Source of the DNA: Reclinomonas americana ATCC 50394
Taxonomy: Eukaryota
Assembly (NCBI GenBank): GCA_048213135.1
Contig: PS015052.1
Coordinates: 38,413-94,556 of the forward strand
Reading direction: 5' to 3'
Length of the DNA: 56,144 nt
Each line of letters begins with the position of its first letter. Position 1 is the first letter of the stretch. Positions 12,553 to 56,144 of this stretch are shown here, in pieces. The notes under the pieces are model-generated. The model made no database searches and was not told the origin of the DNA. It was given only the letters and a program-made list of their open reading frames with translations. Both the position numbers and the translations under genes were made by a program.

Positions 12553-12602
<50 letters not shown>

Positions 12603-12715: not shown

Positions 12716-13008
12716 GTACAGCGACAAGAGTGGAGCACAGGCGACAAGAGTGGAGCACCAGCGACAAGAGTGGAGCACAGCGACAGGGAGGAGCACCAGC
12801 GACAGGGAGGAGCACCAGCGACAAGAGTGGAGCACCAGCGACAAGAGTGGAGCACAGGCGACAAGAGTGGAGCACCGCGACAGAGTGGAGCACAGCGACA
12901 GAAGGAGCACCGCGACAGAGTGGAGCACAGCGACAGAAGGAGCACAGCGACAGAGTGGAGCACAGCGACAACAGGAGCATCAGCGACAGAGTGGAGCATC
13001 GCGACAGG
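12716..13008. repeat. Minisatellite, ~17-20 bp unit (GCGACAAGAGTGGAGCAC[C]A) in an SDR intron
   Basis: About 15 degenerate tandem copies read directly. Confidence 0.9.
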
Positions 13009-28800: not shown

Positions 28801-31627
28801 NNNNNNNNNNNNNNNNNNNNNNNNNNNNNNNNNNNNNNNNNNNNNNNNNNNNNNNNNNNNNNNNNNNNNNNNNNNNNNNNNNNNNNNNNNNNNNNNNNNN
28901 NNNNNNNNNNNNNNNNNNNNNNNNNNNNNNNNNNNNNNNNNNNNNNNNNNNNNNNNNNNNNNNNNNNNNNNNNNNNNNNNNNNNNNNNNNNNNNNNNNNN
29001 NNNNNNNNNNNNNNNNNNNNNNNNNNNNNNNNNNNNNNNNNNNNNNNNNNNNNNNNNNNNNNNNNNNNNNNNNNNNNNNNNNNNNNNNNNNNNNNNNNNN
29101 NNNNNNNNNNNNNNNNNNNNNNNNNNNNNNNNNNNNNNNNNNNNNNNNNNNNNNNNNNNNNNNNNNNNNNNNNNNNNNNNNNNNNNNNNNNNNNNNNNNN
29201 NNNNNNNNNNNNNNNNNNNNNNNNNNNNNNNNNNNNNNNNNNNNNNNNNNNNNNNNNNNNNNNNNNNNNNNNNNNNNNNNNNNNNNNNNNNNNNNNNNNN
29301 NNNNNNNNNNNNNNNATGGCGACCTCGTGGTCCTGTCGCTCCTGCTCTCGCTGCTGCCGCACCGAGGCGAGCTCGTGCTGGAGCTGCGCCGCGTACGCGA
29401 TGTAGTCGGCAAGGTGGCGTGCTACGGCGGCGTCGTGGTCGGACGCCTGCAGCGAGAGGAGTGTGAGAGGCACGGAGCACACGCAGAAAGAGAGAGAAGG
29501 AAGATCCGAGTCTCACCGAGCGAGCAGGAGCTGCGAGCAAGGAGTGAGCAACAAGCGTGAAAGGGAGATTGCACACAGAATGAAGATTTCATACCTGCTT
29601 GCTGTTGCTGGCGTGGCGATCGCGACCCTGCTTCTCCGCGAAATAAGAAACACAGACAACAAACACAATGTGACGGACAAGAAGGAATAGGAGGACGGAA
29701 GTGAACAATGCTCACCAGCTTGCTGCTGGCGCGGCGATCCTGCTCGTTCCGAAGAAGGAGCAACAAATGACAGTAAGGAGTGAGTAGGAAGAGCAAAGAT
29801 CATGTCGTCTGATCGAAGCTCACCTGCTTGCTGCTGCTGAGGCGGCGATCCTGCACAATCCACGAGATGAGAACAGAAACAACGCGAACGTAAACGACAG
29901 CGATGAACAACGCTCACCTCCCTGCTGCTGTTGAGGTGGCACTGCTCGTTCCGCACACCGTGATCGCAACGCGTAAGAGGAATGAGCAAAGAATGCAGCG
30001 CATCAGACAACATCCTACCTGCTTGTTGCAGTTGAAGCGACGATCCTGCTTGTTTCGAAGAAGGAGCACGGGATGACCGTAAGGTGTGAGCGGAAAGAGC
30101 GGCGAAAGCAGCGCATCAGACAACATATCACCTCCTTGTTGCGGTTGAAGCGACGACCCTGCTGGGTTCAGCGAGATGAGGAACACAGGCAACAATGTGG
30201 TGGGGATGGGAAGAGAGAAAGAGCAAAGAATTCGGCACGTGAACAAGTCTCACCTGCTTGTTGCGGTTGTATCGACAATCCTGATTGTTCCACGAAAAAA
30301 GAAACACAGAAAAAATGCTGTGAGCGACAGGATGGTAACTGAAGGATGTCGAGAGAAACACCGCTCACCGCCCTGCTGTGGGGGAAGTGGCACTGCTTGT
30401 TTCAAATAGGAGGAACAAGGACAGCAACGCGTGAGATGAAAGACCACAGAGTGCTTCTCCTGAAATCAAATCTCACCTCCCTGCTGTGGGGGAAGCGGCA
30501 CTGCTTGTTTCAAATAGGAGGAACAAGGACAGCAATGCGTGAGATGAAAGACCACAGAGTGCTTCTCCTGAAATCAAATCTCACCTTCGTTTCCTTGCAG
30601 ATGCGGGAAAGGTGCTGCTGCTGTTCCCGGAGAGAGTAGTGAGGAGAAAGAGCAACGATTACGTCACAAGAACAGATCTCACCTGCTGGCTGCTGTTGGG
30701 CACTCGACACAACTTTGCCACAACAGACAACAAAAAAGTGAGCGACGAAGGGCAAGATTGAAACCCCCCATATGACAAATCAACTGCACCTCCTTGCGGT
30801 TGGTGTTGAGACCCTGCTGCTCACAACAATCGGTCAGAGAAAGCTCACGGATGGCTTCTCAACAGCACAGGCCTCACCTCTTTGTTGTTGTGTCACTGCG
30901 CGGGGAATAATCGCACGCACAGTGAGACATCGGAAGAACACAAGAAACCAACCTGACAACATACCAAGATACTCACCTGTCTGCATCTGCTGCTCAACCG
31001 CCAGCCGGTCGAGCAACTTGGCCACCTGTTGGTGATTCTCTGCACGCGCCAACTGCGCCGCCGTCTTGCCACGTTTGTCGAGCATCGGAACCAGATCAGG
31101 GAAGTGCGTGGCCAGGAGCCGCACAATGACTTCGTGGCCTTCCACGGCGGCAAAGTGCAGTGCTGTGCAACGCGGAAACACAAAGCCGTCGGTGGTGACC
31201 GCATGCACGGTTTCCGGCGGACATCGTCGCTCGTCGGCCAGCAACCACTCGACAACTCGCAGCTGTCCGCGAAAGGCTGCTGCCATCAGTGGAGTCATGC
31301 CCGCGACGGTGACCATTCGTGCGAGCTGTTGTCCTGCACCACTCTCCTCCCACAGATACTCCAGCACTGCGAGGTGGCCTCCGTGGGCGGCAAAGTAGAA
31401 GGACGACTGGTTGTTCTCGTCCATTTCGTCGCGTTTGAGCAGTGTCGGAGCGCCCTCGCGTGTCACCAGCTCGCGGAGGGCTTTTATGTCGCCGCTGCTG
31501 GCCATGAGCCAGGCTTTCTTTCGTTGTTGGGTGCTGGGTAAGAGAGAGAGAGAGCAGGGTGAGTGTGGATGCTGACAACTGTGATGCAATGAGCATTGGT
31601 TGAATTCGCACGCGGAATGCACCTCAT
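25837..31627 (-). CDS. Ankyrin-repeat + Gln/Pro micro-exon linker + coiled-coil + IRAK/Pelle/RLCK-type Ser/Thr kinase
   Basis: Phase-consistent model: 31627-31623; 31533-30977 (ankyrin repeats: SSFYFAAHGGH, TPLMAAAFRGQ, TALHFAAVEGH, GKTAAQLA); 14 micro-exons in 30895-29517; 29446-gap-28097 (coiled coil); then 27798-27591, 27535-27435, 27376-27259, 26379-26272, 26199-25837. Kinase motifs: FEWPEIV..ATDSF, VGAGGQGAVY, VAIK, HRDIKPSNVLLD, GDFGIAR, YMDP, DVYSMG. Confidence 0.88.
29517..30895 (-). repeat. Tandem micro-exon/intron array (~95-125 bp period), including a near-exact 108-bp duplication (30364-30471 / 30472-30579)
   Basis: Recurring AG|(G)SxxQQQxG|GT units, seen on the + strand as CTCACC..CTG. 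Confidence 0.85.
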
Positions 31628-32119: not shown

Positions 32120-32719
32120 ATGGGATCCGGCGCCTCCGCATCCTCATCACGCGTGGAAGACTGGGAGGCCGACAGCTTCTACGAGGTCGACGTGATCCGC
32201 GTGAACTTTGTCGGCAAGGGCATCGCTGCAGCCGCCCTCCTCTTCCCTCCCGCGTGGCCCGTGGCCGTTCCCTCTCTGTTTGGCGGTCGCACCGGCGTGG
32301 GCGAGAACAGAATGGCCGAGCATCAGGGCCTCATTCTGCGTCAAGTCGGCGATGTGGCGTTCTGGTCGTGCCAGTTGCTGCAGGTCGGGGAGATTGACTG
32401 TCGTGTGTGTGCTCATCGCTCCTCATGCCTCTCTCCCTCTTCACAGAGCGGACAAGTGGAGCTCATGCACCACTCGTCGGTGCGAGACGCCGGTCAGCAC
32501 ATTCAGGACTTGGTGTGGGGCGGTGGCGGCGAGTGGAAGTACGTGGAGCGGTGTGATGTTAATCCGCGACACTATCACCAGAATGTGTCGCGCACTCGCG
32601 TCAGAGATTTCAATAAGAGGTGGGAGGCCGGCGGAGGCTACGATCTGTGGTCGCGCAACTGTCAGCACTTTTGTGCGGCGTTTTTGGAGGAGTTTGCGGG
32701 GGGTGCGAGGCGGATTTGA
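32120..32719 (+). CDS. Permuted papain-like (NlpC/P60 superfamily; PPPDE/LRAT-type) thiol peptidase or acyltransferase, predicted N-myristoylated
   Basis: His motif (AEHQGLIL) lies N-terminal to the Cys motif YDLWSRNCQHF. MGSGAS N-terminus. Probable in-frame 63-nt GT-AG intron at 32384-32446. Confidence 0.8.
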   Translation: MGSGASASSSRVEDWEADSFYEVDVIRVNFVGKGIAAAALLFPPAWPVAVPSLFGGRTGVGENRMAEHQGLILRQVGDVAFWSCQLLQVGEIDCRVCAHRSSCLSPSSQSGQVELMHHSSVRDAGQHIQDLVWGGGGEWKYVERCDVNPRHYHQNVSRTRVRDFNKRWEAGGGYDLWSRNCQHFCAAFLEEFAGGARRI

Positions 32720-33016
32720 TGGGGAGGAGAGAGGGGAATTCGAAGAGAGGGGGAGAAAGAGGTGGGTACCGGTGAAGTTTTGCGTGAATGATGAGGTGTT
32801 TTTGTAAAGGAGGATCCGAGGATGTTTAGCGCCGGAGAGAGAGAGAGGCCTTGTGTTCTCAGGCGGGGGCAGTCTCGATGATGGGAGGGGTGGTGGGCTT
32901 GTGCGTCTCTTCCTCGACTTCCGAAGAGGTTGCTGCTCTGTCGGGTCTACGGATACCGCTGTACTTCCTATCGGCTCCTTCGCAGCGGGCGCGGTTGGGT
33001 ACAGGGGTTGTGGATT

Positions 33017-33275
33017 TCAGCTGCATCGCGATATCGAGACGCTCATTGTGGCTCTTCCACTGTGTCCATCGAGGTTGAATGCTGCCATTATGCAACTGTT
33101 CATGTTGTTGTTCTCTGTGTGGAGTTGTTGTCCATCATCACCTCAGCACCCAGCTTCGCCTGATCCATGTTCCCTCCAGAAGAGGTCCGAAAACAAAGAG
33201 ACATGCATGCTGCTGGTCATGGAGCAATCGCAGTTGACGATGCACCAAGGTTGCCCAGTTCTCTGACATCCCTCT
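33017..33275. repeat. Diverged direct repeat, left of module-gene copy 2 (partner ~42436-42700)
   Basis: Colinear shared blocks: TCAGCTGCATC[G/T]CGATATCGAGAC, GATCCATGTTC, GGTCATGGAG, AAGGTTGCCCAGTTCTCTGACA. Confidence 0.8.
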
Positions 33276-33526
33276 CCTCCCTCTCTTCCTTTCTCACCTC
33301 GCTCCTCCTCCTCCTCCTCACCTTCCACATCACGACTTGTCACCTTTTTCATCTTGCTGTTCGGATCAACGAATCTTCATTGCTTCTCTCTTCGTTTCTT
33401 GCATCACGCAGTGCGCGCGTGTGTGCGAAACAACAACAGAGACGCACACAAGTGGCCTCTCGACCTCCTCCTCCTCCTCCTCCACGCCCTCACTCAACAA
33501 CAACAACAACAACTCCTTCACTGCCA

Positions 33527-36500
33527 ATGTCTGCCTCTTCTCCACGTGACGATGAGAAAGCAGACATGATGCTCATCGACAGTAAGCAGCATGTGACGAC
33601 GCCAATGATGATGATGATGCATTCCTCCTCTCTCTCTGTCAACATCAACGATGATGATGATGATGATGAGAAGAAGATGAAGAGCGCATTGGGGTCATCT
33701 ATTCATCGTGCTGNNNNNNNNNNNNNNNNNNNNNNNNNNNNNNNNNNNNNNNNNNNNNNNNNNNNNNNNNNNNNNNNNNNNNNNNNNNNNNNNNNNNNNN
33801 NNNNNNNNNNNNNNNNNNNNNNNNNNNNNNNNNNNNNNNNNNNNNNNNNNNNNNNNNNNNNNNNNNNNNNNNNNNNNNNNNNNNNNNNNNNNNNNNNNNN
33901 NNNNNNNNNNNNNNNNNNNNNNNNNNNNNNNNNNNNNNNNNNNNNNNNNNNNNNNNNNNNNNNNNNNNNNNNNNNNNNNNNTCCTCCTCCTCCTCCTCCT
34001 CCTCCTCCTCTTGCTCTTGTTCTTGTTCCTGTTCTTGTTCTTGTTCTTCTTCGGCTTTTACTTCTTCTCCTTCTCTCTTCTTCTTCTTCTTCTTCTTGTT
34101 CTTGTTCTTCTTCTTCTGCCTCATCATGGATTGTCGTTGTGTTTCATTCCCTGTTGCAGATCCAGCTGGCCTCGTGAAAGGCAAGAAGGAGAAGAAGCAC
34201 ACCGACGAGAGCACAGCCGCCATTGCCGCTGCGAGAAGTGATGCGGAGAATCACATTGCACAGGGTGCGTCTCTCTCTCCTCCTTCTTGCTGTCGTAGGT
34301 GTTCTCGTGTTACGTGATGTCTCACATGGGCGATACACGTGCGCACAGCTGCTCACCAGGAGCACATGGAACACACAGCGATGGAAGGCATCGTCGAGGT
34401 ACAGTTGATGTGTGTCATCCCAAGATGAGCATGTCTCTTACTGCTCTCTCTCCCTCTCTCTCTTGACATGATTGCACAGCAACGTGCGAGAAGACGGCGA
34501 GTCGACTCGTCTCTGATGGATCACAGCGAGGACTTGCCTGCACGTGATTCAGTTGACACATTGGTCCGCAAGCGTTCTCTGGAGGTGAGCTCCGATGTGG
34601 CACGCGTCTCACTTTGCCTCTCGCTCGTGCATCACAGTCGACACCTGATGGTTCTTCATTCTCAGCAGGTGGATGCATCCGGAGATGACGAGCTTGCACC
34701 GCCAAAGAAGAAGAGGAAGGTTTGGATTCTCTGCTACTGACATTGTTGTGCTAGTTCGTCGATCTGCAGTTGGGTTCTTCGTGTCAATGATGCATGCATG
34801 CTGTGGATTCACAGGGTGGCAAGACTCGAGCTGCCAAAAAGCCAGAGGAGTTGAGCGCATGCGAGAAGCTTCTGCTGAACAAGCTGCTTGTTGCGTGTGC
34901 ATGCTCCATTTGTCATCATTGCGATCCACTTTGCTCCTCCTTTTCCTCGATGTACTCACCATTCTTACTGTGTCTCTCGCAGCGGTGCAATCGGAAGAGG
35001 ATTCTGGTGAAGGCATTCGGCCTAATGGCGCCCATTGTTCACGGGTCCACTGTCATCCACCATCAGAGTGTTCTCTTTGATATTGCCTGGGACGAGTGCG
35101 GGGTTCCATTGTCGGAGCCGAGTCGCATTTCGTCTGCAGTCAAGAGTGCATTTGGCAAGAGTCTCGGCGTGACTGCCAACCATTCACGCGCCAAAACGCC
35201 CAAATCAGTGGAGGGTGTGCTCAAGAGCGTGAGCAACTTCATCGAGGTGAGCATGCATTTTGCCTGTGAACGACTGTTGAATGTGAACCAACATGCAGAT
35301 GATGGCAATGTACAGGTGAGCCAGCTCAGTGGCGCGGCTCTGGTGTATGCTGTCGAAAGACCACTCATTGTGGTGGATGAGCGCGGATATTCGGAGGTGA
35401 GTGTGGGTTTTTTATTGCCTTCTGTTTCTTTTGCCATCATGCGACTGATCTTCGTTCACTCGGCTGTATGTGCCAGGGATCTTGGAGGAAATTGCCAACA
35501 GAATTTAAAAACAAGAAAGATCATCATCAGCCATTTGTCAAACAGGCCATATATGTGATGCGCAAGTGCGTTGGTCTCATGGCTGCTCTGCTTCGAGATA
35601 CCTGTCTGTCGGATGCGGAGATTGCACGTGCCGTCACGTGGTGCCATGCAAAAGGTCTGCAATCTCATACCGCTGTTGGTGTTGCTTGCACTGGTGTTGA
35701 CCAGCGCCACGCAGAATATGGCGATGTGAAGATGGTGGTGAAGAAGGAGGAGGAAAATGACGGAGAGGGTGATGTCGTCAAGTTCGAAGACGATGACATC
35801 AAGGTACGGGGAACAAAAGCTGCGGGCGAGCAAGTGTTCGTGGACTTGGTCGACAATTGATATCTTGCGTCTCCACAGGCGGATGCAGGCCGTGACGATG
35901 ACGGAGGAACAAAGTCGAGCACGGTGCGACAATGTGTCTGGATGGTTGGTGAGGCAGGCTTGTTGATTGTGGATGTTGTATGGGATGTGCATTTGCAGCG
36001 CGTCAAGAGTGGTCGCCATGTATTCGATGCGGATTTGAGCAAGGACGAGCGAGTGCTGCTGGACAGACTGCATGTTGCGTTTGCATGTCCACAACACCTT
36101 AGCAAGGCAGATTGCACTCTTCCATGCGCTGTGCCATAACACCTGATGCTTGGAACAGCGGTGCAACAAAAGGAAGATACTGGTGACGGCATTCGGCATC
36201 ATGGCGCCTATGATTAAGCCATTTGCAGTCTGGCATCATCATCGTGTTCTGTTTGAACTCGCCTGCAAGGAGTGTGGTATCCCATCATCTGGAGCTGGCA
36301 TTCCGTCATCCGCAGTCATGGTCTCGTTCGGGAAGAGTCTTGGCAGGGCCGTCCAAGTCGCACGCACCAACACACCCAGGTCAGTTGAAGGTTTGCTCTA
36401 TGGCATGAGCAACTTTATCGAGGTGAGTATCTGTCTGTGCAGTCCGTCTCACATGTAACTGTAGAGTGAGCCAACATCGATGCATATGCAACTCTTGCAG

Positions 36501-39500
36501 AAGAGTGAACTGCGCGATGCTGCTCTGGTGGATGCCATTGAGAGACCACTGATTGTGGTGGATGAACGGGGCCATTCAGAGGTGTGCCGACTTTGCTTTG
36601 TGCTATTTGCATTTCTTGGTTTGTGTCGACTCACTTGCTTTGTTCACGATGTCGGTCGTGCTGCAGGAATCATGGAAAATGATGGAGATGAAGCAGAAGA
36701 AAAACGACCATCTCCTGCCGTTCATTGTGCAGGCCGCGCTGGCCTTGCGTGAGTGTCCTGGCTTGCACGCGTCGCTGCTTCGAGACGGCTGTCTCTCCGA
36801 GGCGGAGATCGCACGGGCCGTCGAGTGGTGCACCGAAAGAGGTTTGATGGCATCGGATGCGCTTCTACTGTGTGCATGGCGTCAGGACTGACAGGCGAGA
36901 TGCAGCTCTGGTGGAGGCGAAGGTGATGAAGAAAGAAGAGATGAAGGAGGAAGAGGAGAAGGAGGAGGAACAGGAGGATGATCCAAGGGTCGATGGGGAA
37001 GACGATGAAGACGACGGCATGGATGAAGGTGACAGGAGGAAGGTATGACCATGGATGATTGGACAAGTGCACGTTGTGGCAGCATCTCATGGTGCGCATT
37101 CACAGCGACGAGGGAGCGGTCCTGCAACAATGAGCAAGGACGAACAACTAATGCTGGCAAGGCTACATGTTGAGTGTGCTTGTAGTCATGTCCTTCCTCG
37201 GTAGTCGTCTGGCTGATTGAGCTCTCATCCTGCCACCCATGTGTTCCATGCGAGAGCAGTGCTGTAACAAGAAGAAGATACTGGTGACTACATATGGAAT
37301 CATGGCGCCGTGTGTGGTGGAATCCACAGTCCGCCATCATCAGCGCGTTCTTGTTGAACTCGCCTGCAAGGAGTGTGGCATCCCTTCATCGAAAGCAGGC
37401 TGTCTTTCGACGTCAGTCGTGAGCTCATTCGGTAAGAGCCTTGGCATGTACGTTAGAAAAGCACGCAAGATGACGCCCAAGTCAGTTGATGGAGTGCTCC
37501 AGACCATCAGTGACTTTGTCGAGGTGAGTGTTGCCCGTCTCACCCGTCACATCAACGATCAGCGCTAACATATGTGACATTTTGCAGAAGAGTGAACTGT
37601 GTGGCGCTGCTCTGGCGGATGTCATTGAAAGGCCACTGGTTGTGGTGGACGAACGCGGCTATTCGAAGGTGCGGTTGCCCTGTATTCTGCGTGAAGATAG
37701 CGATTCTCACATTCTGTTTCCGGAATTCGGATGTCAGGAGTTGTCACTCTTGCCGTGGAAGAAGCGCAGCAAGCAGAATGCTCTTTTGCCGTTGTTCACA
37801 CAGGCCGTCGATGCCGTGCGCAACTGCCCAGGTCTGCTGGCCACTCTGCTTCGAGACGGCTGCCTTTCCGAGGCAGATATTGCACGTGCCGTCGAGTGGT
37901 GCAGTGAACGAGGTTTGGCTGCGTGACCTTCGTAATTGCTGCACTGTTTGTGCATGTGTTGACAATCTGGCACAGCTCTGAGGGAGATGGAGATGGTGAA
38001 GAAGGAGGAGAAGAGGGAAGAAGATCAGGAGGATGCTAACGACAGCGAGAGTGAAGATGTCGACGCGAGAGGGAATGGCAGGAGCAAGGTACGCCCGCCC
38101 GCCACTCCTTTCTGAAAGATACAAAAGGTATGTATCTTAACATTTCATGGTGTTCATGTCACAGAGCCACAACAAAGATCCTGCGAAGCTGAGCATTAAC
38201 GAGCAACTGATGCTGGCGAAACTGCTTGTTGCGTGTTGCAGTACTCTATTATCACCGACAATGCTCACCATGAACCCATCATTCACTCGCCCGCCCATCA
38301 CGCACGCGAACAGGGTTGCAACAAGAAGAGGATACTGGTGAAGGCATTCGGCCTCATGGCACCCTTGGTGATGGGATCCACAGTCCTCCACCACCAGCGC
38401 CTTCTCTTGCAGCTTGCCTGCGGCGAATGCGGAATGCCGTCGGAGGGACCTGGCTGTCCGTCATCCGCAGCCATGTCTGCACTCGGCAAGAGTCTTGCCA
38501 ATAGTGCCTACACGGCACGCTGCAAGACGCCCAAGTCAGTGGAGGGCGTGCTGGCGAGCGTGAGCAACTTCATCGAAGTGAGTGTCTCTGTGTTGGCTTC
38601 GTATTTCATTCGTGCCTGGTTGCTGATCCGACGTTCATGTGCATGTAATTATCAGAAAAGCGGTCTTCGAGGAGTCGAGCTGGTAGATGCTGTCGAGCGA
38701 CCACTGATTGTGATTGACGAACGTGGCTGCTCGGAGGCTTGTGGACATAATTGTGTGCATCGATGTGCGTCAATAATATATTGTCTCACTTTCTCGATTC
38801 TCGGGTCGTAGGAATCAGCCAAGCTGACGCAGATAAGCAGCAAGCAACATGTTCTTCTGCCGTTTNNNNNNNNNNNNNNNNNNNNCACTCAGCAGCGCAG
38901 CTCCTCGAAGACCGCTCTTCTGATGATCCCGCGCGAATATATTGAACTCAAGTCAATCAACAGCTCGTCACGATCGGAGGCGAATCAGAGAAAGCAAACT
39001 GACACTCACCTCGATGAAGTTGCTCACGCTCTCGAGCACGCCCTCCACCGACTTGGGCGTCTTGCTGCGTGCCTTCTCGGCATTTTTGGCAAGACTCTTC
39101 CCAAATGCAGACATGACAGCGGAATAAGGGCAGCCGTGTCCCTTGGACGGCATGCCGCATTCGTCACAGGTTAGCTGGAAGAAAACACGCTGATGATGGA
39201 GGATCGTTGATGCCACCACCACGGGAGCCATGAGGCCAAATGCCTTCACCAGCAGCCTCTTCTTGTTGCATCCCTGCTCGAATAATCATTGGATGAGTGG
39301 AGTGAGGAGCCGAGCAGAGAGATAGCAACAACACGCAACATGTAGTCTCGTGAGCATCAGTTGCTCGCTGACGCTCAACTTCGCAGGGCCACTCTTGTGG
39401 TGCTGCGATTGAGAGCCGCGCAGTTTTGAAAGGCGCACATCATTCACGCCTCATAGATAGCAGTGACGGGCGTACCTTGTGTCTCCTGTTTCCCTCCACG

Positions 39501-40931
39501 TCGTCGTCCTCATGCTCGCTCCCGTCATCATCATCCGCCTGTTCGTCGTCCTCCCCTTCTTCTCTTTCTTCACCACCTCCATCTCCCTCATGACTGGTCA
39601 CTTGCTTGTCAGCACACGCACACACTCTCCAGCAATGATCGAAACGCAGCCAAACCTCGTTCACTGCACCACTCGACAGCACGCTCCATATCTTCCTCAG
39701 ACAGAAAGCCGTCTCGAAGCAAGGTGACCAGCAGGTCTGGACAGTTGCGGAGAGCCTGCATGGCCTGTGTGACNNNNNNNNNNNNNNNNNNNNNNNNNNN
39801 NNNNNNNNNNNNNNNNNNNNNNNNNNNNNNNNNNNNNNNNNNNNNNNNNNNNNNNNNNNNNNNNNNNNNNNNNNNNNNNNNNNNNNNNNNNNNNNNNNNN
39901 NNNNNNNNNNNNNNNNNNNNNNNNNNNNNNNNNNNNNNNNNNNNNNNNNNNNNNNNNNNNNNNNNNNNNNNNNNNNNNNNNNNNNNNNNNNNNNNNNNNN
40001 NNNNNNNNNNNNNNNNNNNNNNNNNNNNNNNNNNNNNNNNNNNNNNNNNNNNNNNNNNNNNNNNNNNNNNNNNNNNNNNNNNNNNNNNNNNNNNNNNNNN
40101 NNNNNNNNNNNNNNNNNNNNNNNNNNNNNNNNNNNNNNNNNNNNNNNNNNNNNNNNNNNNNNNNNNNNNNNNNNNNNNNNNNNNNNNNNNNNNNNNNNNN
40201 NNNNNNNNNNNNNNNNNNNNNNNNNNNNNNNNNNNNNNNNNNNNNNNNNNNNNNNNNNNNNNNNNNNNNNNNNNNNNNNNNNNNNNNNNNNNNNNNNNNN
40301 NNNNNNNNNNNNNNNNNNNNNNNNNNNNNNNNNNNNNNNNNNNNNNNNNNNNNNNNNNNNNNNNNNNNNNNNNNNNNNNNNNNNNNNNNNNNNNNNNNNN
40401 NNNNNNNNNNNNNNNNNNNNNNNNNNCTGTCGAGAGACCGCTGATTGTGATTGACGAACGTGGTCACTCTGAGGCATGTATCCTGGATGTGTGGTTCTGT
40501 GAATCGATGTTAGCTTGCTCACTTTGCGTACTCTGGCAGGAATCGGCAAAGTTGACGAAATACAGCGATCGAAACGCTCTTCTGCCATTCATCACGCAGG
40601 CCATGCATCTGCTCCACGATTGTCCAGGTCTGCTGGGCACTCTGCTTCGAGATGGTTGTCTTTCGAAGGCGGAGATTGAGCGTGCTGGTGAGTGCTCCAA
40701 ATGAAATGTTCAGAGAGCACCTGCTGTTGGCGTCGTTTCATCATGAGCACTGACGAGCTTGATTCAGTGCTGGATGACGAGAAGCCAAGGAAGATGGCAG
40801 TGGTGAAGAAAGAGGAGGAGGACGAGAAGGAGGAGGAGGAGGAGGAGGAGGAGGAGGAGGAGGAGGAGGAGGAGGAGGAGGAGGAGGAGGAGGAGGAGGA
40901 GGAGGAGGAGGAGGAGGAGGAGGAGGAGTAG
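33527..40931 (+). CDS. Five-module repeat protein, copy 2 (possibly pseudogenising; contig 38886-39773 flipped in the assembly)
   Basis: ATG at 33527 (MSASSPRDDEKADMML..). An exon encoding PPKKKRK ends at 34719. Modules start at ~34814, ~35999, ~37106, ~38166 and on the flipped contig. TAG lies inside (GAG)n at 40929-40931. Exon 34299-34398 is out of phase compared with copy 1. Confidence 0.75.
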
Positions 40932-41869
40932 GAGGAGGACAGTNNNNNNNNNNNNNNNNNNNNNNNNNNNNNNNNNNNNNNNNNNNNNNNNNNNNNNNNN
41001 NNNNNNNNNNNNNNNNNNNNNNNNNNNNNNNNNNNNNNNNNNNNNNNNNNNNNNNNNNNNNNNNNNNNNNNNNNNNNNNNNNNNNNNNNNNNNNNNNNNN
41101 NNNNNNNNNNNNNNNNNNNNNNNNNNNNNNNNNNNNNNNNNNNNNNNNNNNNNNNNNNNNNNNNNNNNNNNNNNNNNNNNNNNNNNNNNNNNNNNNNNNN
41201 NNNNNNNNNNNNNNNNNNNNNNNNNNNNNNNNNNNNNNNNNNNNNNNNNNNNNNNNNNNNNNNNNNNNNNNNNNNNNNNNNNNNNNNNNNNNNNNNNNNN
41301 NNNNNNNNNNNNNNNNNNNNNNNNNNNNNNNNNNNNNNNNNNNNNNNNNNNNNNNNNNNNNNNNNNNNNNNNNNNNNNNNNNNNNNNNNNNNNNNNNNNN
41401 NNNNNNNNNNNNNNNNNNNNNNNNNNNNNNNNNNNNNNNNNNNNNNNNNNNNNNNNNNNNNNNNNNNNNNNNNNNNNNNNNNNNNNNNNNNNNNNNNNNN
41501 NNNNNNNNNNNNNNNNNNNNNNNNNNNNNNNNNNNNNNNNNNNNNNNNNNNNNNNNNNNNNNNNNNNNNNNNNNNNNNNNNNNNNNNNNNNNNNNNNNNN
41601 NNNNNNNNNNNNNNNNNNNNNNNNNNNNNNNNNNNNNNNNNNNNNNNNNNNNNNNNNNNNNNNNNNNNNNNNNNNNNNNNNNNNNNNNNNNNNNNNNNNN
41701 NNNNNNNNNNNNNNNNNNNNNNNNNNNNNNNNNNNNNNNNNNNNNNNNNNNNNNNNNNNNNNNNNNNNNNNNNNNNNNNNNNNNNNNNNNNNNNNNNNNN
41801 NNNNNNNNNNTTTGCACCGGTGCGTGGTGAGGGAATGAGAGTCAGGCAGAAGGGGGAAAGAGAGAGGGG

Positions 41870-42085
41870 AGAGATTTCGCTGGGCTAGCAGCACATGCAA
41901 GTTGTATGCGAGATCAATAGAGCTTGTCGAAAGAGAAGAAGAAGACAGCAGAAACCCCAGTGCACCAAGAGGGACACTTCTGAGCAGCAGCCTTGCGTTG
42001 TGAGGCATGTAGTTTGCATGTGAGTTTTCTTTTCAACCAGCTGACCACTGTTGTTGTCGTAGGAGGAAGAGCAAGACGAGTGAAG
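41870..42085 (+). repeat. 3' tail shared by module-gene copies 1 and 2 (homologous to reverse complement of ~6361-6540)
   Basis: Colinear blocks GAGATTTC..ACATGCAA..GAGATC, CAAGAGGGACACTT..GAGCAGC, and CCAG[C/T]TGAC..TGTTGTCG[T/C]AGGAGGA..CGAGTGAAG. Confidence 0.75.
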
Positions 42086-42435
42086 TAAGATTGGAACCGG
42101 GGACCATCATGCAACTTGCGAGGCAAATGAATGCTGGTGTACGTGGAGCCGCCGGGAAGCATTCATCTGTTGTCGTGAAGTTGCCTGAGAATGGACGTCT
42201 TTTTGACAAGGTTCAGCCATATTCGATGCACCGACACGTGCTTCACGGCAGCGGCAGAGCAGCACGCCGCTGGTGCATGACTACCAGGTGTGGGGAGGGA
42301 GCCACCCATCGTTAGATTATGCAGGTGACTCGTGCATTTGTGGATCGATACGAATCGAGCAGCAGGAAGTGCTACTCCTGCAACTGCACTCGACACCGCC
42401 GGTGCGCTTGGAATGCAGTCTCGATGTCTGTGTTA

Positions 42436-42700
42436 TCAGCTGCATCTCGATATCGAGACCTTCTCAATGTGTCTGGTTGCCTCTCTTCTTCGGTGTCCTT
42501 CGAGGTGATGCTGCCATGATGCTTTTGTTCATGTGCGCTTGTGTGAAGTTGTTGTCCACCATCATCCAGCACCAACTTCTCGGATCCATGTTCTCTCCGC
42601 AAGAAAGAGATCCTAAACAGAGAGACGAACATGTGCAGGTCATGGAGAACAATCGCAGCTGGCGATGCACCTAAGGTTGCCCAGTTCTCTGACACCCCTC
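42436..42700. repeat. Diverged direct repeat, right of module-gene copy 2
   Basis: Matches 33017-33275 with several indels. Confidence 0.8.
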
Positions 42701-42795
42701 TCTCCTCCTGTCCACCTTCGCGAGCACGTTGAAAAACGCAAGTGGAGACATTAACACGTCTTCGACCACGCCTACTGCATATATTGTGACACCAC

Positions 42796-44395
42796 TCACA
42801 CAAGCTGCACGTTCGCGGGCCGATATTGCAGCGACGTGATGTTGCGAACGAGAAGCATGGGCGGGCGACGAACTCTGTGCAACATTATAGAACTCAGAAG
42901 ACAAAGACGCAGCCAGCAGCGGAGACCAGCTACGCAGTCGAACCTGTGGGCGTATTGAATGATTTGCCACACATATCGTGCGGTGCAGACGGCCAGCGCG
43001 AAGCCACGACCACGCAGGAGCGACACAGTGGACGAGGTGACAAAGCCGACGAGGTGTCGAGAGGAGCTCTGTGTCAGCACAACCGCGAATGAGCATATAC
43101 AAATAAAGACGAAGAGAAGGGTGAGGGACAGACGGATAGAACGACAGGAGTGGAGCAAACGAATCATCCATGGTAAACGGAGACAGGAAAAGAGAAGGAG
43201 AAAGCGAGTTGTTTGAAAATGAGTCGGGAATTCGTTGTGTGAGCAAAGGAAGAGAAGACCGGGAGATGACATGAGACGATCCATCTGAGCAACAAGCAAG
43301 CGCCCACTCGGTTGTGAGCAGACCGGCGGTAGAAAACGCGACCCTCGGACTCACTCACTCACTCACTCACTCAAAGATGAAAAATCTTTCCAATAACGCA
43401 GACACGCACTCGCGCACAGACACACAGCCGTGCTCTCACCAAGAGAGGAGGAGGAGAAGAGAGTTGAGAGAGAGAGAGAGAGGAAGGGAGGTGAATAGGG
43501 AGAGAGTACGTGGGAGGAAGAATTGTGCAATCATGCGGAGCAATGGCGAGTCAATGCAGGACGACACGCAACACGTATGGCGAGAGAGGCTCACTTTCAC
43601 AGTCTACCATCAATCTCTCCTGCTCTCGTCTGTCGTCCCTTCTCTCTTCGTTTATCTTCCTGTTCTCTCACTCGCTCAAGCGCTTTCCAGAACCTTGCAA
43701 GCGTAACGACAAGAGCTCTTTCTCTCCCTCCCCTTCCCCTCCCCCCTCCCCTTCCACCCCCACCACCCACCACATCACCACCGCGACCTCGCGATTCCAT
43801 CAAGCCCTCCCACTGCGCCGACTGCCGCGCAGTGTACTCCCGCAGATCCTCCTCCGTTGGCATGTACACATGCGCATTGAAAGTGGGATTGCCACGTCCG
43901 GCAAAATGCAGGCGCACCGTGACGAGCGCGGGCGGACTCACGCTCACTGCGAGGAACAAGTGAGAAAGAGATAGACAGAGAAGAGAAAGGGAGCGAGTGC
44001 ATGTCGCAACAGAAAGCGGGAGGTTCTTGGACGGCTGCAGCAGCGGCGCGCTTGAAGGCAGTCAGCTCACTGCCGCGGAGAACACGGAACCTGCGAGTCA
44101 CAACGGATGAGCACAACAGGAGAGATTCTCAATTGTTCAACGGCGAGTCAGGCGCAACGGAAGCACAGCGTCGACGGGCAAAATGACTTCGCCGGAGGGC
44201 GTCGGCACGTCAGCAGCCTCCTCTGGAGGATCTGGGGAAGAGAAGAGGCCAGAGAGAGAGAGAGAGTGAGCAAGATGAAGACTCCAGCTGCTCACATGAC
44301 CCCCACAACAAACGAACGCGCTCTCGCGAGGGCGTTGCTTGCGACCGACGACCGCTGACGACGCCTCTCTCTCTCTGTCGTATCTCTCTTTCGTC

Positions 44396-44444
<49 letters not shown>

Positions 44445-47400
44445 AGGACTGTCATCCCAAACACGCCACAGTACAGGACACACCCACATATATCCACGAT
44501 TTCCCCCTCATTATACACAAGCAACTGGCAGAGATCGTTAACACTCTCATGCACTCATTTCCCCCGACATTCACATGTCCACAGTCGTTCTCTCATAGAC
44601 TTGCATTCTCCTTCTCTTCCCCCCTCCCTTCCCAACACTTACCTACAGCCTCCTCGCCATCCAAACGCACTTCCACCACTGCAGAGCACTCACCAAGTCA
44701 ATCACCCCCTCCCCACCAGTCCTCGCCGAATCCTACACCAACACTCACCATTCGTGACCTCGCCATTTGCCTTGCTCTCATCCTCCTCCTCATCCTCCTC
44801 TTCTTCAACGCCCTCCATGCTCTCCTCGTCTTCCTCAACATCCTGCCCCGCATCGCCGCTGCCGACTGCCGCCATTCCTCCACTCACAATGTCCCATCTC
44901 GCGACAAACGGGTACGAGATGCGCAGCTGCAAAATAAACACGGATGAGTTTCGACAATCACTAACTTGCTCCGTCCTCGCCAACCTTGGCATAATTGACA
45001 CGCTTCGCCGGCGGCTTCTTCGTGAACGCGCGGGCCAAGGTGGAACCCGTCACCTGCGCCTCGTGCACGTACGACAACGTATCCGGTACGTCGACTGGAA
45101 AATGCGGCACGCCGGCCTCAGTGTGCATGCGCACAGTCTCGCGAAGACCGATGGGTCGAGCGCCGGCACGAACCAGGGATTTCCAGAATGGCATCCCTGT
45201 GGCAGGCGAAGGGTGAGATCACACACCACAATTAATCTGTTCTCGCTGACTCGCTCTGCATCGTGCACATTAATGTTTCGCTCAGTCCACATTTACATCA
45301 GTGCATCCACCACCACTTCAAGCCACCCAGGATTTCAGATACGCTGTCACTCACTCACTCCTGCGTCGCTGGCTCCATCACACGGTCAAATGCTGTCTAC
45401 TTCCCATCCCCGACAAGCGTTCTCCACAAACTCACTTCTATTATTCTCAGGCATGAATAGCTCGTCATCTCCCGCTTCCCACGACTCCCCTCTCCCGCCT
45501 GCTCTCAACACATTCACATTGCTAGACTATGTTTCTTCTCTTCTGCACCCACTTCCGATTCGCATCGCATCATCGTCTCTCTCTCTCTCTCTCGCTCTCT
45601 CTCTCTCACTCTCTCTCTCTCTCCCTTCCCTTCATCATCTCTCGCTCGTCCTCTCCCACTTTCCATCAGTTCTGTGGTGCTTGCACAATCATCTCTGTCT
45701 CCCTTCTTCCCAACCAATACATTCGTTTCCACCTGATTCCTGACTCCATTCCATCTCTCGATCATCTCCCGCTCGTCATCTCCCACTTCTCCCATTCCCC
45801 TCGATCTCAACGCACTGCTGTTTTCAGCTTTCGTTCACGTGGCTCATTTTTCTATTCTCCTCTCCTCTCTGTGTGGCATCGACTACCGAGTTTCTTTGCA
45901 TCATAATCATCTCTTTCCTATCCCACACACCCACCCTCCCAACACGCTCATTTTCACCCGAGTCCTCGTACTCCTAACTCCATTCCTTCGATGTCTTCTC
46001 CCGTTCCCATCCCACGACTCTGCCTTTACCCTCGATCTCAACACATGCACACTTAGTCTGCGTCTCACAAGCTCACTTCTCTTCAGCTAAAGTACTGCAT
46101 CATCATCTCTTTTTCGCACTCTCTCTCTCCTTTCCTTCCTCCCTTCACATTCATTTACCAACGGTTTCCTTGTCAAAGCTCTCCCACATCATCTCCTGCT
46201 CGTCCCTCTACCCCCCTCCCCCTCCCCTTCTCTCCCCTCCCCTTCCGCCTCCCCAACGCACCCCAATTCGCCGGCACAATCAACGACCACCCACACCCAT
46301 GCGCCCTCGTCTCCTCAAGCGGCGGCTGCTGAATCAACAACACGTGCGGATTGTCGTCGCGCTCCTGCGCCAGTGCCTCCATCTCGGCGTTGCGAGTGAG
46401 GCGCAACACAAACTGTTGCGCAGTGAGGACGCGCTTGACAAACAACAATGGTGACCACATTGGCGGCGCACCTGCGAGCGCAGCATGTTGACGGACTTCT
46501 CCGACTGGATGGTACGCTTCAGCTGACGCCTGGCATCCCCATTGTAGAGCGAGGACGCCGACACGCCGCAGGGCCAGAACTCCAGCAGCGACTGCACGAG
46601 ATCACCGTCCAGTGGCGCGCGCGTGTCGCCGGCGCCTGCCGCTTCTTGCTGCTCCGTCTCCACCGCCTCACTCTCCATCGTCACAGGCTCTCCCATGTCA
46701 TCGTCAGCCGGCACGCCACCACTGCTGCTCCCAGTCGCAGCCGCGGCCTTGGTGGAAGTCTTGTTGGAATGGAGATATGAGGCAATCGCAGAGTGCGACA
46801 CTTTGGCGGCATTGCATACCTGTGCGGCTGGCTTTTGTCGCTTGTAATTGGCCGCCGGGTTGATGTTGACAAAGTNNNNNNNNNNNNNNNNNNNNNNNNN
46901 NNNNNNNNNNNNNNNNNNNNNNNNNNNNNNNNNNNNNNNNNNNNNNNNNNNNNNNNNNNNNNNNNNNNNNNNNNNNNNNNNNNNNNNNNNNNNNNNNNNN
47001 NNNNNNNNNNNNNNNNNNNNNNNNNNNNNNNNNNNNNNNNNNNNNNNNNNNNNNNNNNNNNNNNNNNNNNNNNNNNNNNNNNNNNNNNNNNNNNNNNNNN
47101 NNNNNNNNNNNNNNNNNNNNNNNNNNNNNNNNNNNNNNNNNNNNNNNNNNNNNNNNNNNNNNNNNNNNNNNNNNNNNNNNNNNNNNNNNNNNNNNNNNNN
47201 NNNNNNNNNNNNNNNNNNNNNNNNNNNNNNNNNNNNNNNNNNNNNNNNNNNNNNNNNNNNNNNNNNNNNNNNNNNNNNNNNNNNNNNNNNNNNNNNNNNN
47301 NNNNNNNNNNNNNNNNNNNNNNNNNNNNNNNNNNNNNNNNNNNNNNNNNNNNNNNNNNNNNNNNNNNNNNNNNNNNNNNNNNNNNNNNNNNNNNNNNNNN

Positions 47401-50400
47401 NNNNNNNNNNNNNNNNNNNNNNNNNNNNNNNNNNNNNNNNNNNNNNNNNNNNNNNNNNNNNNNNNNNNNNNNNNNNNNNNNNNNNNNNNNNNNNNNNNNN
47501 NNNNNNNNNGGGGGAAGGGGGGAAGGGGGAGAGGGACAACGGCGTGAGATGAGCGCCAAAGAGGACGGGATAGGGATCGAGAGAGAGAGAGAGCGAGATA
47601 GGAACACGGCATTGTGTACCACAAAGCTGTGTGACAGAAGGAGCAGAAAGAGCGGAAATGAGCTTTCTCTCTCTCTCTCCCCCGCACACGCACACATGGA
47701 AGCACACAGAGAGCGGCAAACATATATACACACATATACAGGAGGGGCAGAGAGCGTGTGTCAAAACGCGCGTGAAAGAAGGAACGAAGAGAGGGGAAGA
47801 GTTATTTTCTCTTTCCTGCACATGCACACAAGGAAAAACAGAGAGGGAGAGGTAGAGCGAGACAGAGCGAGAAAGAGAGATCGACACACATACAGAAGGA
47901 AGAGAGTGCGTGTGTCACATGAGTGAAAGAGAGCAGAAAAAGCGAGAATGAGCTCTCTCTATCCCCTGCAGACACTGAGGCACAGATCGAGAGAGAGAGA
48001 GGGAGGGAGGGAGAGGGAGAGCAAGAAAGCGACACAGAAGTAGACACAATGCGCAAACACGGACACAGAGAGAGAATGGCAGTGGGTGTCACAAACATGC
48101 GTGAAACTAGGAACAGACAGTAAAAAGAGTAGTTCTCTGTCTCTTTCCCCACACGCACCCACGGAGGAACAGAGAGAGCGAGAGAGAGAGAGAGAGCGAG
48201 AGCGCGACAGAGTCGTAGACACACAGTGTACACACACAGAAAGAGGGAAGGACAGCGTGTGCTACACAAATGCGTGAAAGAAGGAATGGAAAGAGAGATC
48301 GAGTTGTTCTTTTCCAATCTCACTCTCCTGTACACGACACAGACAAGTGGAGAGAGCGGCCTGGAGGGCAGCAAGCACAAGCGTAGACAAGAGACTGGGA
48401 GAAACCAGGTTATAAAGGTCTCGTTGTGGTTCATAGACCGCGACTCACCTGGCTGCTCGCTCAGGGCCGCCGATTGGTTCAAAGTGTACAGCACCTCGCG
48501 CAGCGCAGCCGGATGCACCCACAACCACAGGGCGCGAGGCAACATGTCCGCACTGACCATCCCCGCATCGTGAGCAAACCACATTTTCACCATCACATTC
48601 AAAAGAAACGCACCGAATGCTGCTGTCGGTGCACGGAGAGGCATGCGCATCCGCCTCGCCATCACGCTGGTGCCACAGGAACTCAGCGGTGCACACAAAG
48701 CCGGCGGGATATGCGCTGCACTTGTACACGTCGAGGTGGCCAGCAAACGAGCCGTCAATGTACCTGCACGGGGGAGAGCAGTTAGCCGAGCACGCAAATA
48801 CGCTTGTCCTATCCCTTCCAACGTGTGTGCGCAACTTGAGATTGGCCACCGCCGATACCCCCGGATCGCTCACTCGCTCCACCGCGCGAATCAGTGCGCC
48901 CTGCGGACCATGCAGCTCCACCACCTCCACGAACGACGCGTCGTGCAGTGTGCAGCCGGTCGCCGCCTGCCGGTGCGACGAGCGCACGCATTTCTCGTTG
49001 GGGTGCACCGCCAGCTTGTAGCCGTACAGCGGACGCATGTGCATGCGCTTGGCATGCCACAGGTGCGTCTCCAGCCACTTGAATGAGCGCTGACGGCGGG
49101 CAAACTCATCGCTCAGTCGGCCGGGGCGTCGTCGCTTGACGCGCTTTTGCGAGGTGGGTAGTCTGGGGAGGAGGGGGAGGGAAAAGGGGGGGGGGCGGGA
49201 GAAAGGGGGATTGGGGAGAAGGGGAAGGGTGAGGAGAAAGGGGGAAGGAGGAAGCTTCTCTTCTTATTCCCTCCTCTCGCTCTCGCAGGCGACAAGATTC
49301 GGCACACCCTGCATGAAAGAGAAGTGGGGAAGGACACTTTCTCTCTTCTCTCTCTCTCTCTCTGACACTCTCACGCACAAGCGATACAGAACACGCCTTG
49401 ACATGCATTACCTCCCACACACAAGTGAGAACCAGCGACCCCCGCATCGCAACAAACGGAAAAAAGGCCTTTGCATGCATCTAGTCTCCCCAGTCCCCCA
49501 CACAAGCGAATCACGGCACCAACATGCATCCTCCCTCCCTCTTCCCCTAACACAGCACGACTATAGACACGCCCTTGCTTGCATCCATCCCCCTTGCGAA
49601 CCCCGCACTGCAACAAACGACACAAGCTTGACTTGACATGCATCCACTCTCCCCCTCCCCCTACACACAAGCAAGAACCAGCACGACAACAGACACGCCA
49701 ATGTATGCATCCCTCCCCCTTGCCCCCACACACATGCGAACCCCGCACTGCAACAAACGACACAAATTTGACTTGACATGCATCCACTCTCCCCCTCCCC
49801 CTACACACAAGCAAGAACCAGCACGACAACAGACACGCCTTTGCTTGCATCCCTCCCCCTTGCCCCCACACACACGCAAACCCCGCACTGCAACAAACGA
49901 CACAAACTTGACTTGACATGCATCCAATCTCCACCTCCCCCTTCCCCTAACACAGCACGACAACAGACACGCCTTTGCTTGCATCCATCCCCCTTGCGAA
50001 CCCCGCACTGCAACAAACGACACAAACTTGACTTGACATGCATCCACTCTCCACCTNNNNNNNNNNNNNNNNNNNNCCCCCTTCCCCAAACACAGCACGA
50101 CAACAGACACGCCAAAGCACGAACAGCACGACAACAGACACACCTTTCCATGCATTCCCTTCCCCTTTACCCCCCTTACAGTCCCCTCACCTATCCTCCC
50201 CCTCGCCCTCCTCCTCCGACTTGACCACCACCTGCTCCATGCGTTGCATCTCTCGCTTCCCGCGCGCCCTGCGATTGCGCGGCAACAGATGCATGTTGTG
50301 ACTCATGGCGCGTCGGCGCTTGTGCTTGGGCAGTGTCTGGAAGACGCGACGGGTGCCCGAACGCTCGCCCGCGTGCAAGTCGGCAGTGAGCTTGGCCACT

Positions 50401-50831
50401 TCGGTTTCGCGAGCCTGAGAGGAGCACGAGAGAGAGAGANNNNNNNNNNNNNNNNNNNNNNNNNNNNNNNNNNNNNNNNNNNNNNNNNNNNNNNNNNNNN
50501 NNNNNNNNNNNNNNNNNNNNNNNNNNNNNNNNNNNNNNNNNNNNNNNNNNNNNNNNNNNNNNNNNNNNNNNNNNNNNNNNNNNNNNNNNNNNNNNNNNNN
50601 NNNNNNNNNNNNNNNNNNNNNNNNNNNNNNNNNNNNNNNNNNNNNNNNNNNNNNNNNNNNNNNNNNNNNNNNNNNNNNNNNNNNNNNNNNNNNNNNNNNN
50701 NNNAAAGGGGCGAGTGAGCGAGATGCTGCAAACACACTCTCAGTGTCTCTCTCGCATACACACACACGCACGCACGCACACACAGAGGGGAGAAGAGCAG
50801 GCACAGCAGTGGCCGCAAGGAGAGCACGCAG

Positions 50832-54300: not shown

Positions 54301-56144
54301 NNNNNNNNNNNNNNNNNNNNNNNNNNNNNNNNNNNNNNNNNNNNNNNNNNNNNNNNTGACAGCGTCTCATGATGCGCATTCACAGCAACGACGAGGGAGC
54401 GGTCCTGCAACAATGAGCAGGGACGAACAACTGATGCTGGCAAGGCTACATGTTGAGTGTGCTTGCAGTCATGTCCTTCCTCGGTAGTCGTCTGGCTGAT
54501 TGAGCTCTCATCCTGCCACCCATGTGTTCCATGCGAGAGCAGTGCTGCAACAGGAAGAAGATACTGGTGACTACATTTGGAATCATGGCGCCGTGTGTGA
54601 TGGAATCCACAGTACGCCATCATCAGCGCGTTCTTGTTGAACTCGCCTGCAAGGAGTGTGGCATCCCTTCATCGAAAGCAGGATGGCTTTCGTCGGCAGT
54701 TGTGAGCTCATTCGGTAAGAGCCTTGGCATGTACGTTAGAAAAGCACACAAGATGACGCCCAAGTCAGTTGATGGAGTGCTCCAGACCATCAGTGACTTT
54801 GTCGAGGTGAGTGTTGCCCGTCTCACCCGTCACATCAACGATCAGCGCTAACATATGTGACATTTTGCAGAAGAGTGAACTGCGTGGCGCTGCTCTAGCG
54901 GATGCCATTGAGAGGCCGCTGTTTGTGGTGGACGAACGCGGCTATTCGAAGGTGCGGTTGCCCTGTGTTCAGCGTGAAGATAGCGATTCTCACATTCTGT
55001 TTCCGGAATTCGGATGTCAGGAGTTGTCACTCTTGCCGTGGAAGAAGCGCAGCAAGCAGAATGCTCTTTTGCCGTTGTTCACACAGGCCGTCGATGCCGT
55101 GCGCAACTGCCCAGGTCTGCTGGCCACTCTGCTTCGAGACGGCTGTTTGTCTGAGGCGGAGATTGCACGTGTTACCGAGTGGTGCAGTGAACGAGGTTTG
55201 GCTGCGTGACCTTCGTAATTGCTGCACTGTTTGTGCATGTGTTGACAATCTGGCACAGCCCTGAGGGAGATGGAGATGGTGAAGAAGGAGGAGAAGAGGG
55301 AAGAAGATCAGGAGGATGCTAACGACAGCGAGAGTGAAGATGTCGACGCGAGAGGGAATGGCAGGAGCAAGGTACGCCCGCCCGCCACTCCTTTCTGAAA
55401 GATACAAAAGGTGTGTACCTTAACAATTCATGGTGTGCATGTCACAGAGCCACAACAAAGATCCTGCGAAGCTGAGCATTAACGAGCAACTGATGCTGGC
55501 GAAACTGCTTGTTGCGTGTTGCTGTTGTATTGGCATGTCAAATTCTGTCATGAACTCCTCACTTGCATGTGCCAACACACTTACGAACAGGGATGCAACA
55601 GGAAGAGGATATCGGTGAAGGCATTCGGCCTCATGGCACCCTTGGTGATGGGATCCGCAGTCCTCCACCACCAGCGCCTTCTCTTTCAGCTTGCCTGTGA
55701 CGAATGCGGAATGCCGTCGGAGGGACCTGGCTGTCCGTCATCCGCAGCCATGTCTGCACTCGGCAAGAGTCTTGCCAATAGTGCCTACATGGCACGCTGC
55801 AAGACGCCCAAGTCAGTGGAGGGCGTGCTGGCGAGCGTGAGCAACTTCATCGAAGTAAGTGTCTCTCTCTGTGTTGACTTTGTATTTCATTCGTGCCTGG
55901 TTGCTGATCCGACGTTCATGTGCATGTAATTATCAGAAATGCGGTCTTCGAGGAGTCGAGCTGGTAGATGCTGTCGAGCGACCACTGATTGTGATTGACG
56001 AACGTGGCTGCTCGGAGGCTTGTGGACATAATTGTGTGCATCGATGTGCGTCAATAATATTGTCTCACTTTCTCGATTCTCGGGTCGTAGGAATCAGCCA
56101 AGCTGACGCAGATAAGCAGCAAGCAACATGTTCTTCTGCCGTTC
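51365..56144 (+). CDS. Five-module repeat protein, copy 3 (runs off the window end within module 4)
   Basis: ATG at 51365 (MSASSPCDDEKADMML..), a PPKKKKK exon, and modules starting at ~51973, ~53167, ~54387 and ~55448, with the same introns as copies 1 and 2. Confidence 0.82.

Follow-up and report, generated by a model that had tools for sequence, protein, structure and literature searches.

Three gene copies built of tandem five-exon modules in Reclinomonas americana, possibly encoding a nuclear binding protein

A stretch of 56,144 nucleotides from Reclinomonas americana ATCC 50394 (GenBank assembly GCA_048213135.1, contig PS015052.1, positions 38,413 to 94,556 of the forward strand), referred to below as the window, carries three copies of a gene made up of tandem modules, 14 in all, which recur with a genomic period of 1,042–1,217 nt. 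A five-exon cassette, whose outer introns are both in phase 0, has been duplicated in tandem, and whole genes have then been multiplied together with their spacers. As for the product, we tentatively favour a non-catalytic nuclear protein with basic modules that would bind DNA or chromatin, the acidic linkers and a poly-Glu tail moderating this binding. The window is eukaryotic DNA with short introns and many microsatellites, and 8,517 N are spread over its 24 gaps. Compared with itself, it shows three long stretches that are related to one another and have an internal repeat length of about 1.1 kb; the exon model was built by hand from homology and then checked, the automatic splice finder having over-split the exons. 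The copies and their modules are located as follows (D/E, Asp or Glu residues).

6644–12627, minus strand: copy 1, five complete modules and an acidic tail, ending with TAA at 6644; 29 exons and 28 introns
10908–12019, minus strand: copy 1 module 1, exons B 12019–11945, C 11864–11601, D 11531–11451 and E 11369–11192
11130–11042 and 10952–10908, minus strand: linker exons of copy 1 module 1
9825–10836, minus strand: copy 1 module 2
8773–9762, minus strand: copy 1 module 3
7739–8706, minus strand: copy 1 module 4
6644–7668, minus strand: copy 1 module 5, whose exon E is shortened, plus the acidic tail (70% D/E)
33527–40931, plus strand: copy 2, from ATG to TAG, with low-complexity N-terminal arm, five modules and poly-Glu tail
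34815–35923, plus strand: copy 2 module 1, exons B 34815–34889, C 34983–35246, D 35316–35396 and E 35477–35654
35715–35803 and 35879–35923, plus strand: linker exons of copy 2 module 1
35999–37042, plus strand: copy 2 module 2
37106–38088, plus strand: copy 2 module 3
38165–38865, plus strand: copy 2 module 4, exons B, C, D and the first part of E
40427–40931, plus strand: copy 2, last part of module 5 with the poly-Glu tail (77% D/E)
51365–56144, plus strand: copy 3, ATG at 51365 and N-terminal arm, with module 4 cut by the window end
51973–53086, 53166–54172, 54386–55371 and 55448–56144, plus strand: copy 3 modules 1, 2, 3 and part of 4

Each module consists of exons B (63–75 nt), C (264–267 nt), D (81 nt) and E (148–178 nt), followed by an acidic linker exon, and only module 1 has six exons, one additional intron splitting its linker. 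Copy 1 has 1,237 codons without internal stop, counted from exon n2 onward, its 5' end being lost in the N gap 12628–12647, and about 1,360 codons are visible in copy 2. The original prediction, made from the letters alone, had described three copies repeating a unit of about 1.0–1.2 kb, which when spliced would give about 230 residues and a beads-on-a-string protein of about 1,400; this agrees well with the 14 modules of 1.04–1.22 kb, the core of 185–199 residues (complete cores) plus linker of 33–53, and the selected, open-framed product of about 1,350–1,400 residues. Introns were likewise expected at the same positions and phases in every unit, and their positions do match between modules, in phase 0 throughout except for a phase-1 intron following exon E. 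All of the 77 introns examined, which are 56–98 nt long, start with GT (71) or GC (6) and end with CAG (73) or TAG (4). The donor of the B-to-C intron (e.g. 34890, 36074 and, on the minus strand, 11944) reads GTTGCG in 12 and GTTGAG in 2 of the 14 modules, which have diverged to a synonymous distance (dS) near 1; a literature word search gave nothing on the GTTGCG donor. Five of the six GC-AG introns are the D-to-E intron of modules 4 and 5.

The ratio of nonsynonymous to synonymous change (dN/dS) is 0.41 (95% bounds 0.34–0.51), 0.38 (0.31–0.47) and 0.44 (0.31–0.62) for the three copy pairs and 0.30–0.54 between the modules of copy 1, so the value near 1 that had been named as the mark of dead repeats was not obtained at either level. 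No stop was seen in the 14 cores, and in 300 neutral simulations run to the divergence that copies 1 and 2 show per lineage, a five-module core acquired 15.8 stops on average and never stayed free of them. In a comparison of 68 exon pairs and 68 intron pairs, which are not independent of each other, and with exons 4E, 5D and 5A excluded as gap-cut or low-complexity, exons differed in length between copies in 12 cases, of which just 1 breaks the frame, versus 47 of 55 for introns. The intact splice sites, the open frames and dN/dS of 0.38–0.44 thus mark the copies as selected genes and not dead repeats. Constraint is moderate, since exon identity between copies 1 and 2 barely exceeds that of the gapped intron alignments (83% versus 80%). 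This similarity, together with one frameshift and one flipped contig in copy 2 and a break of copies 2 and 3 at the same homologous base, could be taken to mean that the copies are decaying repeats or an assembly artefact from which no protein is made; with dN/dS well under 1 at every level, 14 stop-free cores, exon length changes that keep the frame and splice sites intact in 77 of 77 introns, we regard this as extremely improbable. Moreover, copy 1 is not an assembly duplicate, because a dS of 0.37–0.39 separates it from the other copies.

The disturbed part of copy 2, which the original prediction did not mention, is the following.

38886–39773, minus strand: flipped contig between two N gaps, in which module 4 ends and module 5 begins

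When reversed, this contig continues exon 4E and leads into the remainder of exon 5D, both joins being in frame with no codon missing. The break point is shared, as copy 2 at 38865 and copy 3 at 56144 end at one and the same homologous position. The flip is almost certainly an error of assembly; the simplest explanation is that the assembler collapsed and mis-oriented a repeat, and therefore the contig may mix copies 2 and 3. The true sizes of the gaps around it appear to be zero, which makes the gap sizes in the scaffold unreliable. The frameshift, of 1 nt, lies in the module 4 linker exon near 39553, where the exon length compared with copy 1 is not a multiple of three; it falls within a purine-rich run and may be a sequencing error or real.

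In the neighbour-joining tree of the modules, modules 1, 2 and 3 each cluster across copies (bootstrap 100/100) and are old (dS 0.8–1.3). Modules 4 and 5 form one clade at bootstrap 100, within which the positions get 38/100, and the informative sites on these two modules favour grouping by position by just 19 to 14 to 10. The module 4/5 split has a dS of 0.34, compared with 0.37 for the split of copies 1 and 2, and the shortened exon E of module 5 is common to copies. Identity between module positions is 49–73%. Thus, the claim that module identity from 1 to 5 is kept across copies holds for modules 1–3 and not for 4 and 5. The tree and the dS values indicate that the array reached four modules long ago, and the fifth module probably either arose about when copy 1 diverged from the other two copies or became homogenised later. 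Furthermore, copies 2 and 3 differ patchily in the 5' block (0.5–17% per 200 nt), with identical runs of 211 and 203 nt that were reached in 0 and 17 of 2,000 shuffles, respectively; this fits gene conversion, with the caveat of the possible mixing in the flipped contig. Two flanking stretches also bear on the history.

32985–33299, plus strand: non-coding stretch upstream of copy 2, repeated directly downstream at 42398–42717 (85% over 295 aligned columns; 77% over 279 by blastn)
41845–42085, plus strand: 3' flanking sequence of copy 2, which has a homologous counterpart 3' of copy 1 at 6567–6361 (79% over 206 aligned columns)

It looks as if copy 2 emerged from a tandem array together with its spacers. 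In addition, a 141-nt non-coding piece of the copy 1 3' flank (6214–6361) recurs at 23596–23742, upstream of the Arf gene and without a nearby module; it is a short interspersed repeat or a relic of a lost copy. The shared flanks, the repeat of about 300 nt that brackets copy 2 in direct orientation, the lone recurrence of the 141-nt piece and the scatter of the copies, in both orientations, among housekeeping genes (ARS2, Arf, kinase, ankyrin, POP1) would all suit a gene that belongs to a mobile element, be it a transposon or an endogenous virus, as cargo or product, and that was spread by transposition. However, no terminal inverted repeat is found among the 25 longest inverted pairs listed per region (of 234 and 26), with the 5' end of copy 1 and the 3' end of copy 3 lying outside the view, and family searches gave no transposase, recombinase or viral match. 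Each copy also has at least 28 spliceosomal introns, and the flanks have diverged as much as the introns, which is expected from whole-gene duplication out of a tandem array, so that we consider transposition improbable.

The original prediction recognised no family, and this was borne out by searches of Pfam, PHROGs, PADLOC and PDB sequences and by HMMER and word-index searches, none of which found a relative. The query pieces were 27–184 residues long, the profiles were shallow and eukaryotes were thinly covered, so a remote homologue may still exist, and the label 'lineage-specific' is based on negative searches using single exons. The strongest negative is the full HMMER scan of the exon C profile against 1.84 billion representatives, which gave no confirmed relative; its two hits (E 5e-4 and 7e-4) are unrelated repeat proteins that score by summed short stretches. 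The word-index search, with about 8,000 candidates each for exon C (against longer proteins) and for D+E (against longer and near-length ones), had none at E ≤ 1. Pfam, whose filters remove most matches with E above 0.1, matched 0 of 14 rows of exon C, 0 of 20 rows of exons D and E and none of three exons of the N-terminal arm, and PHROGs, PADLOC (0 of 10 queries) and PDB sequence searches had nothing near the cut-off. Among pattern matches in metagenome contigs, 1 of 540 passed (L001) and proved to be the antisense frame of another gene's acidic tract. In viral contigs 0 of 25 passed with exon C and 2 of 7 with exon E, one (L002) being a short match between stops and the other (L003) having the same coordinates and score; in prokaryote genomes 0 of 179 and 0 of 3 passed. 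A literature word search on the orphan family also gave nothing, although word searches cannot show that a family is absent from print.

The preferred reading of the product starts from the N-terminal arm, whose low-complexity sequence ends in RKR...PPKKK(R/K) in all three copies, a feature overlooked in the original prediction.

12115–12132, minus strand: nuclear localisation signal (NLS)-type motif PPKKKK of copy 1, with RKR upstream in the preceding exon
34699–34716, plus strand: NLS-type motif PPKKKR of copy 2
51861–51878, plus strand: NLS-type motif of copy 3

We take this to be the classical nuclear localisation pattern, and it points to the nucleus as the likely site of the product. The cores are basic (isoelectric point 7.5–9.7), chiefly via exons B and C, exon C having a net charge of +3 to +10 in all 13 modules counted, and the linkers contain 31–51% D/E. 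For exon C, the best structural model has five helices with a mean pLDDT (predicted local distance difference test) of 85. In the mechanism that we propose, the basic motif in the arm would import the product into the nucleus, where each module would form a mostly helical domain with a basic exon-C half (the fold being predicted for exon C alone), perhaps held together by a metal on invariant Cys and His, and the five modules would jointly bind DNA, chromatin or another nuclear polyanion without catalysis. By analogy with the D/E tails of HMGB1 (PMC10250230), the acidic linkers and the poly-Glu tail may serve as intramolecular ligand mimics or histone-binding arms that tune the binding. UBF has tandem basic helical boxes plus an acidic tail. 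HMGB1 and UBF resemble the present protein in a nuclear-type signal, tandem basic domains, helical by prediction here, and a D/E-rich C-terminal tail, the last with a counterpart in copies 1 and 2. D/E repeats in DNA-binding proteins autoinhibit and speed target search (PMC10250230). Our best guess is one of analogy, namely a product that may work like a UBF/HMGB-type protein without belonging to that family; HMG-box profiles in Pfam matched none of the rows of exon C or of exons D and E, which cover exons only.

Several observations weigh against this reading. Exon D has a net charge of 0 to −7 (neutral to acidic) and exon E a mixed one, and the fastest-changing columns include Lys, with no suggestion of a fixed phosphate-binding surface. 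Three of the five models of exon C have a pLDDT of just 65–68, and the D+E model is poor (pLDDT 47). No homologue being found, nothing ties the module to DNA binding directly, and protein scaffolds and nucleolar proteins, too, could combine an NLS-like motif with acidic linkers and a basic domain.

Conservation within the module was examined over 185 columns, 38 of which are invariant, compared with 13 expected at a uniform rate. They include ERP, Asp-x-x-Gly, Arg-Asp, His-His and four Cys columns, and nearly all of their codons show synonymous changes. His-His, the Cys with which exon C opens and the second Cys of the CxxC are kept in 14 of 14 modules. One Cys of exon E is likewise invariant, and another, close to the 3' end of that exon, is so in all 11 modules that have that part. 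The first Cys of the CxxC is replaced by Phe or Trp in 2 of 14 modules by two independent losses. The suggestion of metal binding by the HH, the CxxC and further Cys thus survives in part, for two His and four Cys columns are invariant and the CxxC itself is broken in two modules, which is suggestive only; a metal site in the module is plausible, and a canonical CxxC knuckle less so. The zinc-finger profiles of Pfam gave a best exon C row with E 0.068, which falls short of the cut-off. Variation is greatest where the long helix of exon C ends and where exon E begins, with dN/dS of 0.6–0.7 compared with 0.2–0.3 in the core.

The same columns could belong to a metal-dependent enzyme (e.g. a nuclease or hydrolase) built on invariant His, Cys, Asp, Glu and Arg in each module, and Cys/His columns are indeed more often invariant than the others (5/9 versus 33/176, p = 0.02). 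However, invariance is also frequent in Leu (9/25) and Gly (5/13) columns, as it is in any folded core, Asp-x-x-Gly sits at a hairpin turn (predicted with low confidence), and no enzyme family matched. Five tandem catalytic copies with acidic linkers are also less usual than tandem binding domains, and we hold such an enzyme to be quite unlikely. The module does not show the Walker A (GxxxxGK[ST], following a strand) and Walker B pattern of a P-loop NTPase, as GKS and a later hydrophobic-DE motif are present with no Gly five residues upstream; GKS sits inside a predicted helix, and there was no Pfam match.

An expansion of the favoured binding role, and an unlikely one, is that the module is a new metal-stabilised helical fold reading DNA or chromatin, expanded into arrays of five readers, with gene conversion reshuffling their variable surfaces (where the long helix of exon C ends and exon E begins). 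Lineage-specific birth-and-death nuclear families that arose through duplication of exon cassettes are known, e.g. tandem zinc-finger repressors and GTF2I-repeat or BEN-repeat proteins. As in these, the domain here is amplified within genes and the genes within the genome, with moderate dN/dS and exchange between paralogues; the difference is that the present module matches none of them in Pfam.

The helical model of exon C also invites comparison with histones. Judged by their titles, 19 of the 50 best VIA-align rows belong to histone-fold chains (H3, H4, CENP-A/T/X, TAFs, NC2 and archaeal histone), covering model residues from about 20–28 to 87–88, and the helix-loop-long helix-loop-helix order predicted for exon C and its basic surface would resemble those of the histone or double histone fold (PMC13088155). 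Exon C might then be a degenerate histone fold, its modules pairing by handshake within or between chains in a histone-like chromatin component. Histone-fold profiles matched 0 of 14 exon C rows in Pfam, and we judge this very improbable.

Another reading derives the module from the helical middle (DUF3684; TPR-like repeats, 'Fold B') of Tiamat, NO VEIN or sacsin-like proteins, strongly diverged and freed of the ATPase and the nuclease; once amplified, the array would bind proteins or act as a sensor, perhaps in defence. A preprint (10.64898/2026.09.30.754977) describes DUF3684 as that helical middle, likens the helical folds of the region to beads on a string and states that ATPase-DUF3684 fusions sometimes bear N-terminal NLSs; these are helical folds on flexible linkers, as proposed for the modules here. 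An ESM Atlas feature search with the D+intron+E frame gave 30 hits with scores of 0.96–0.97, of which the listed sets with a family carry DUF3684 (15–17% of members) or DUF8348 (20–28%), and dN/dS near 0.4 with patchy exchange between copies fits a birth-and-death family. However, the Atlas recognition of 1522 lies under the 2300 mark, which makes the score weak, 23 of the 30 hits are without a family, the query included 23 intron-derived residues and exon C yielded no usable hit. PF12449, the Pfam entry for DUF3684, matched none of the exon rows, and PADLOC, as said, matched none of its queries. The visible gene consists of the arm, five modules and the acidic tail, with no GHL ATPase or PD-(D/E)xK nuclease domain, and the 268-N gap in the copy 2 arm is too short for an ATPase, provided that its size is right. 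The modules are also near-identical in layout and retain the sequence identity between positions given above, in which they differ from Tiamat. We find this derivation doubtful.

Among the neighbour genes, 7 of 18 scanned frames had Pfam matches (ARS2, Arf, protein kinase, ankyrin protein and POP1), and Rfam had 0 matches within the window. The POP1 gene (43600–50438, minus strand), with N- and C-terminal Pfam matches, lies head to head with copy 3, less than 1 kb from its ATG, and minisatellites occupy one of its introns at 49595–50056. Other minisatellites are found at 1356–1817 (period 21/41 nt), 12711–13007 (about 18–20) and 30364–30586 (108). Exon pieces at 13080–13500 (minus strand), which have no Pfam match and presumably resemble a short-chain dehydrogenase by their motif, run toward the 20-N gap before copy 1, and this gap therefore probably hides much more sequence. 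An open frame at 32400–32716 (plus strand), which ends just upstream of copy 2, has no Pfam match either, and its motif presumably recalls PPPDE/DeSI peptidases.

Orphan repeat families are common in unstudied protists. We regard the module as an undescribed domain within a familiar kind of architecture, with no sign so far of an unusual mechanism, and testing is easy because a single module of about 190 residues can be expressed alone. If the module proves to be a new nuclear binding fold, a poorly sampled eukaryotic lineage would have yielded a reader of chromatin or DNA that its genome amplified at two levels under selection, and if the five-reader arrays are real, they would represent an independently invented counterpart of the tandem zinc-finger repressor families in a microbial eukaryote.

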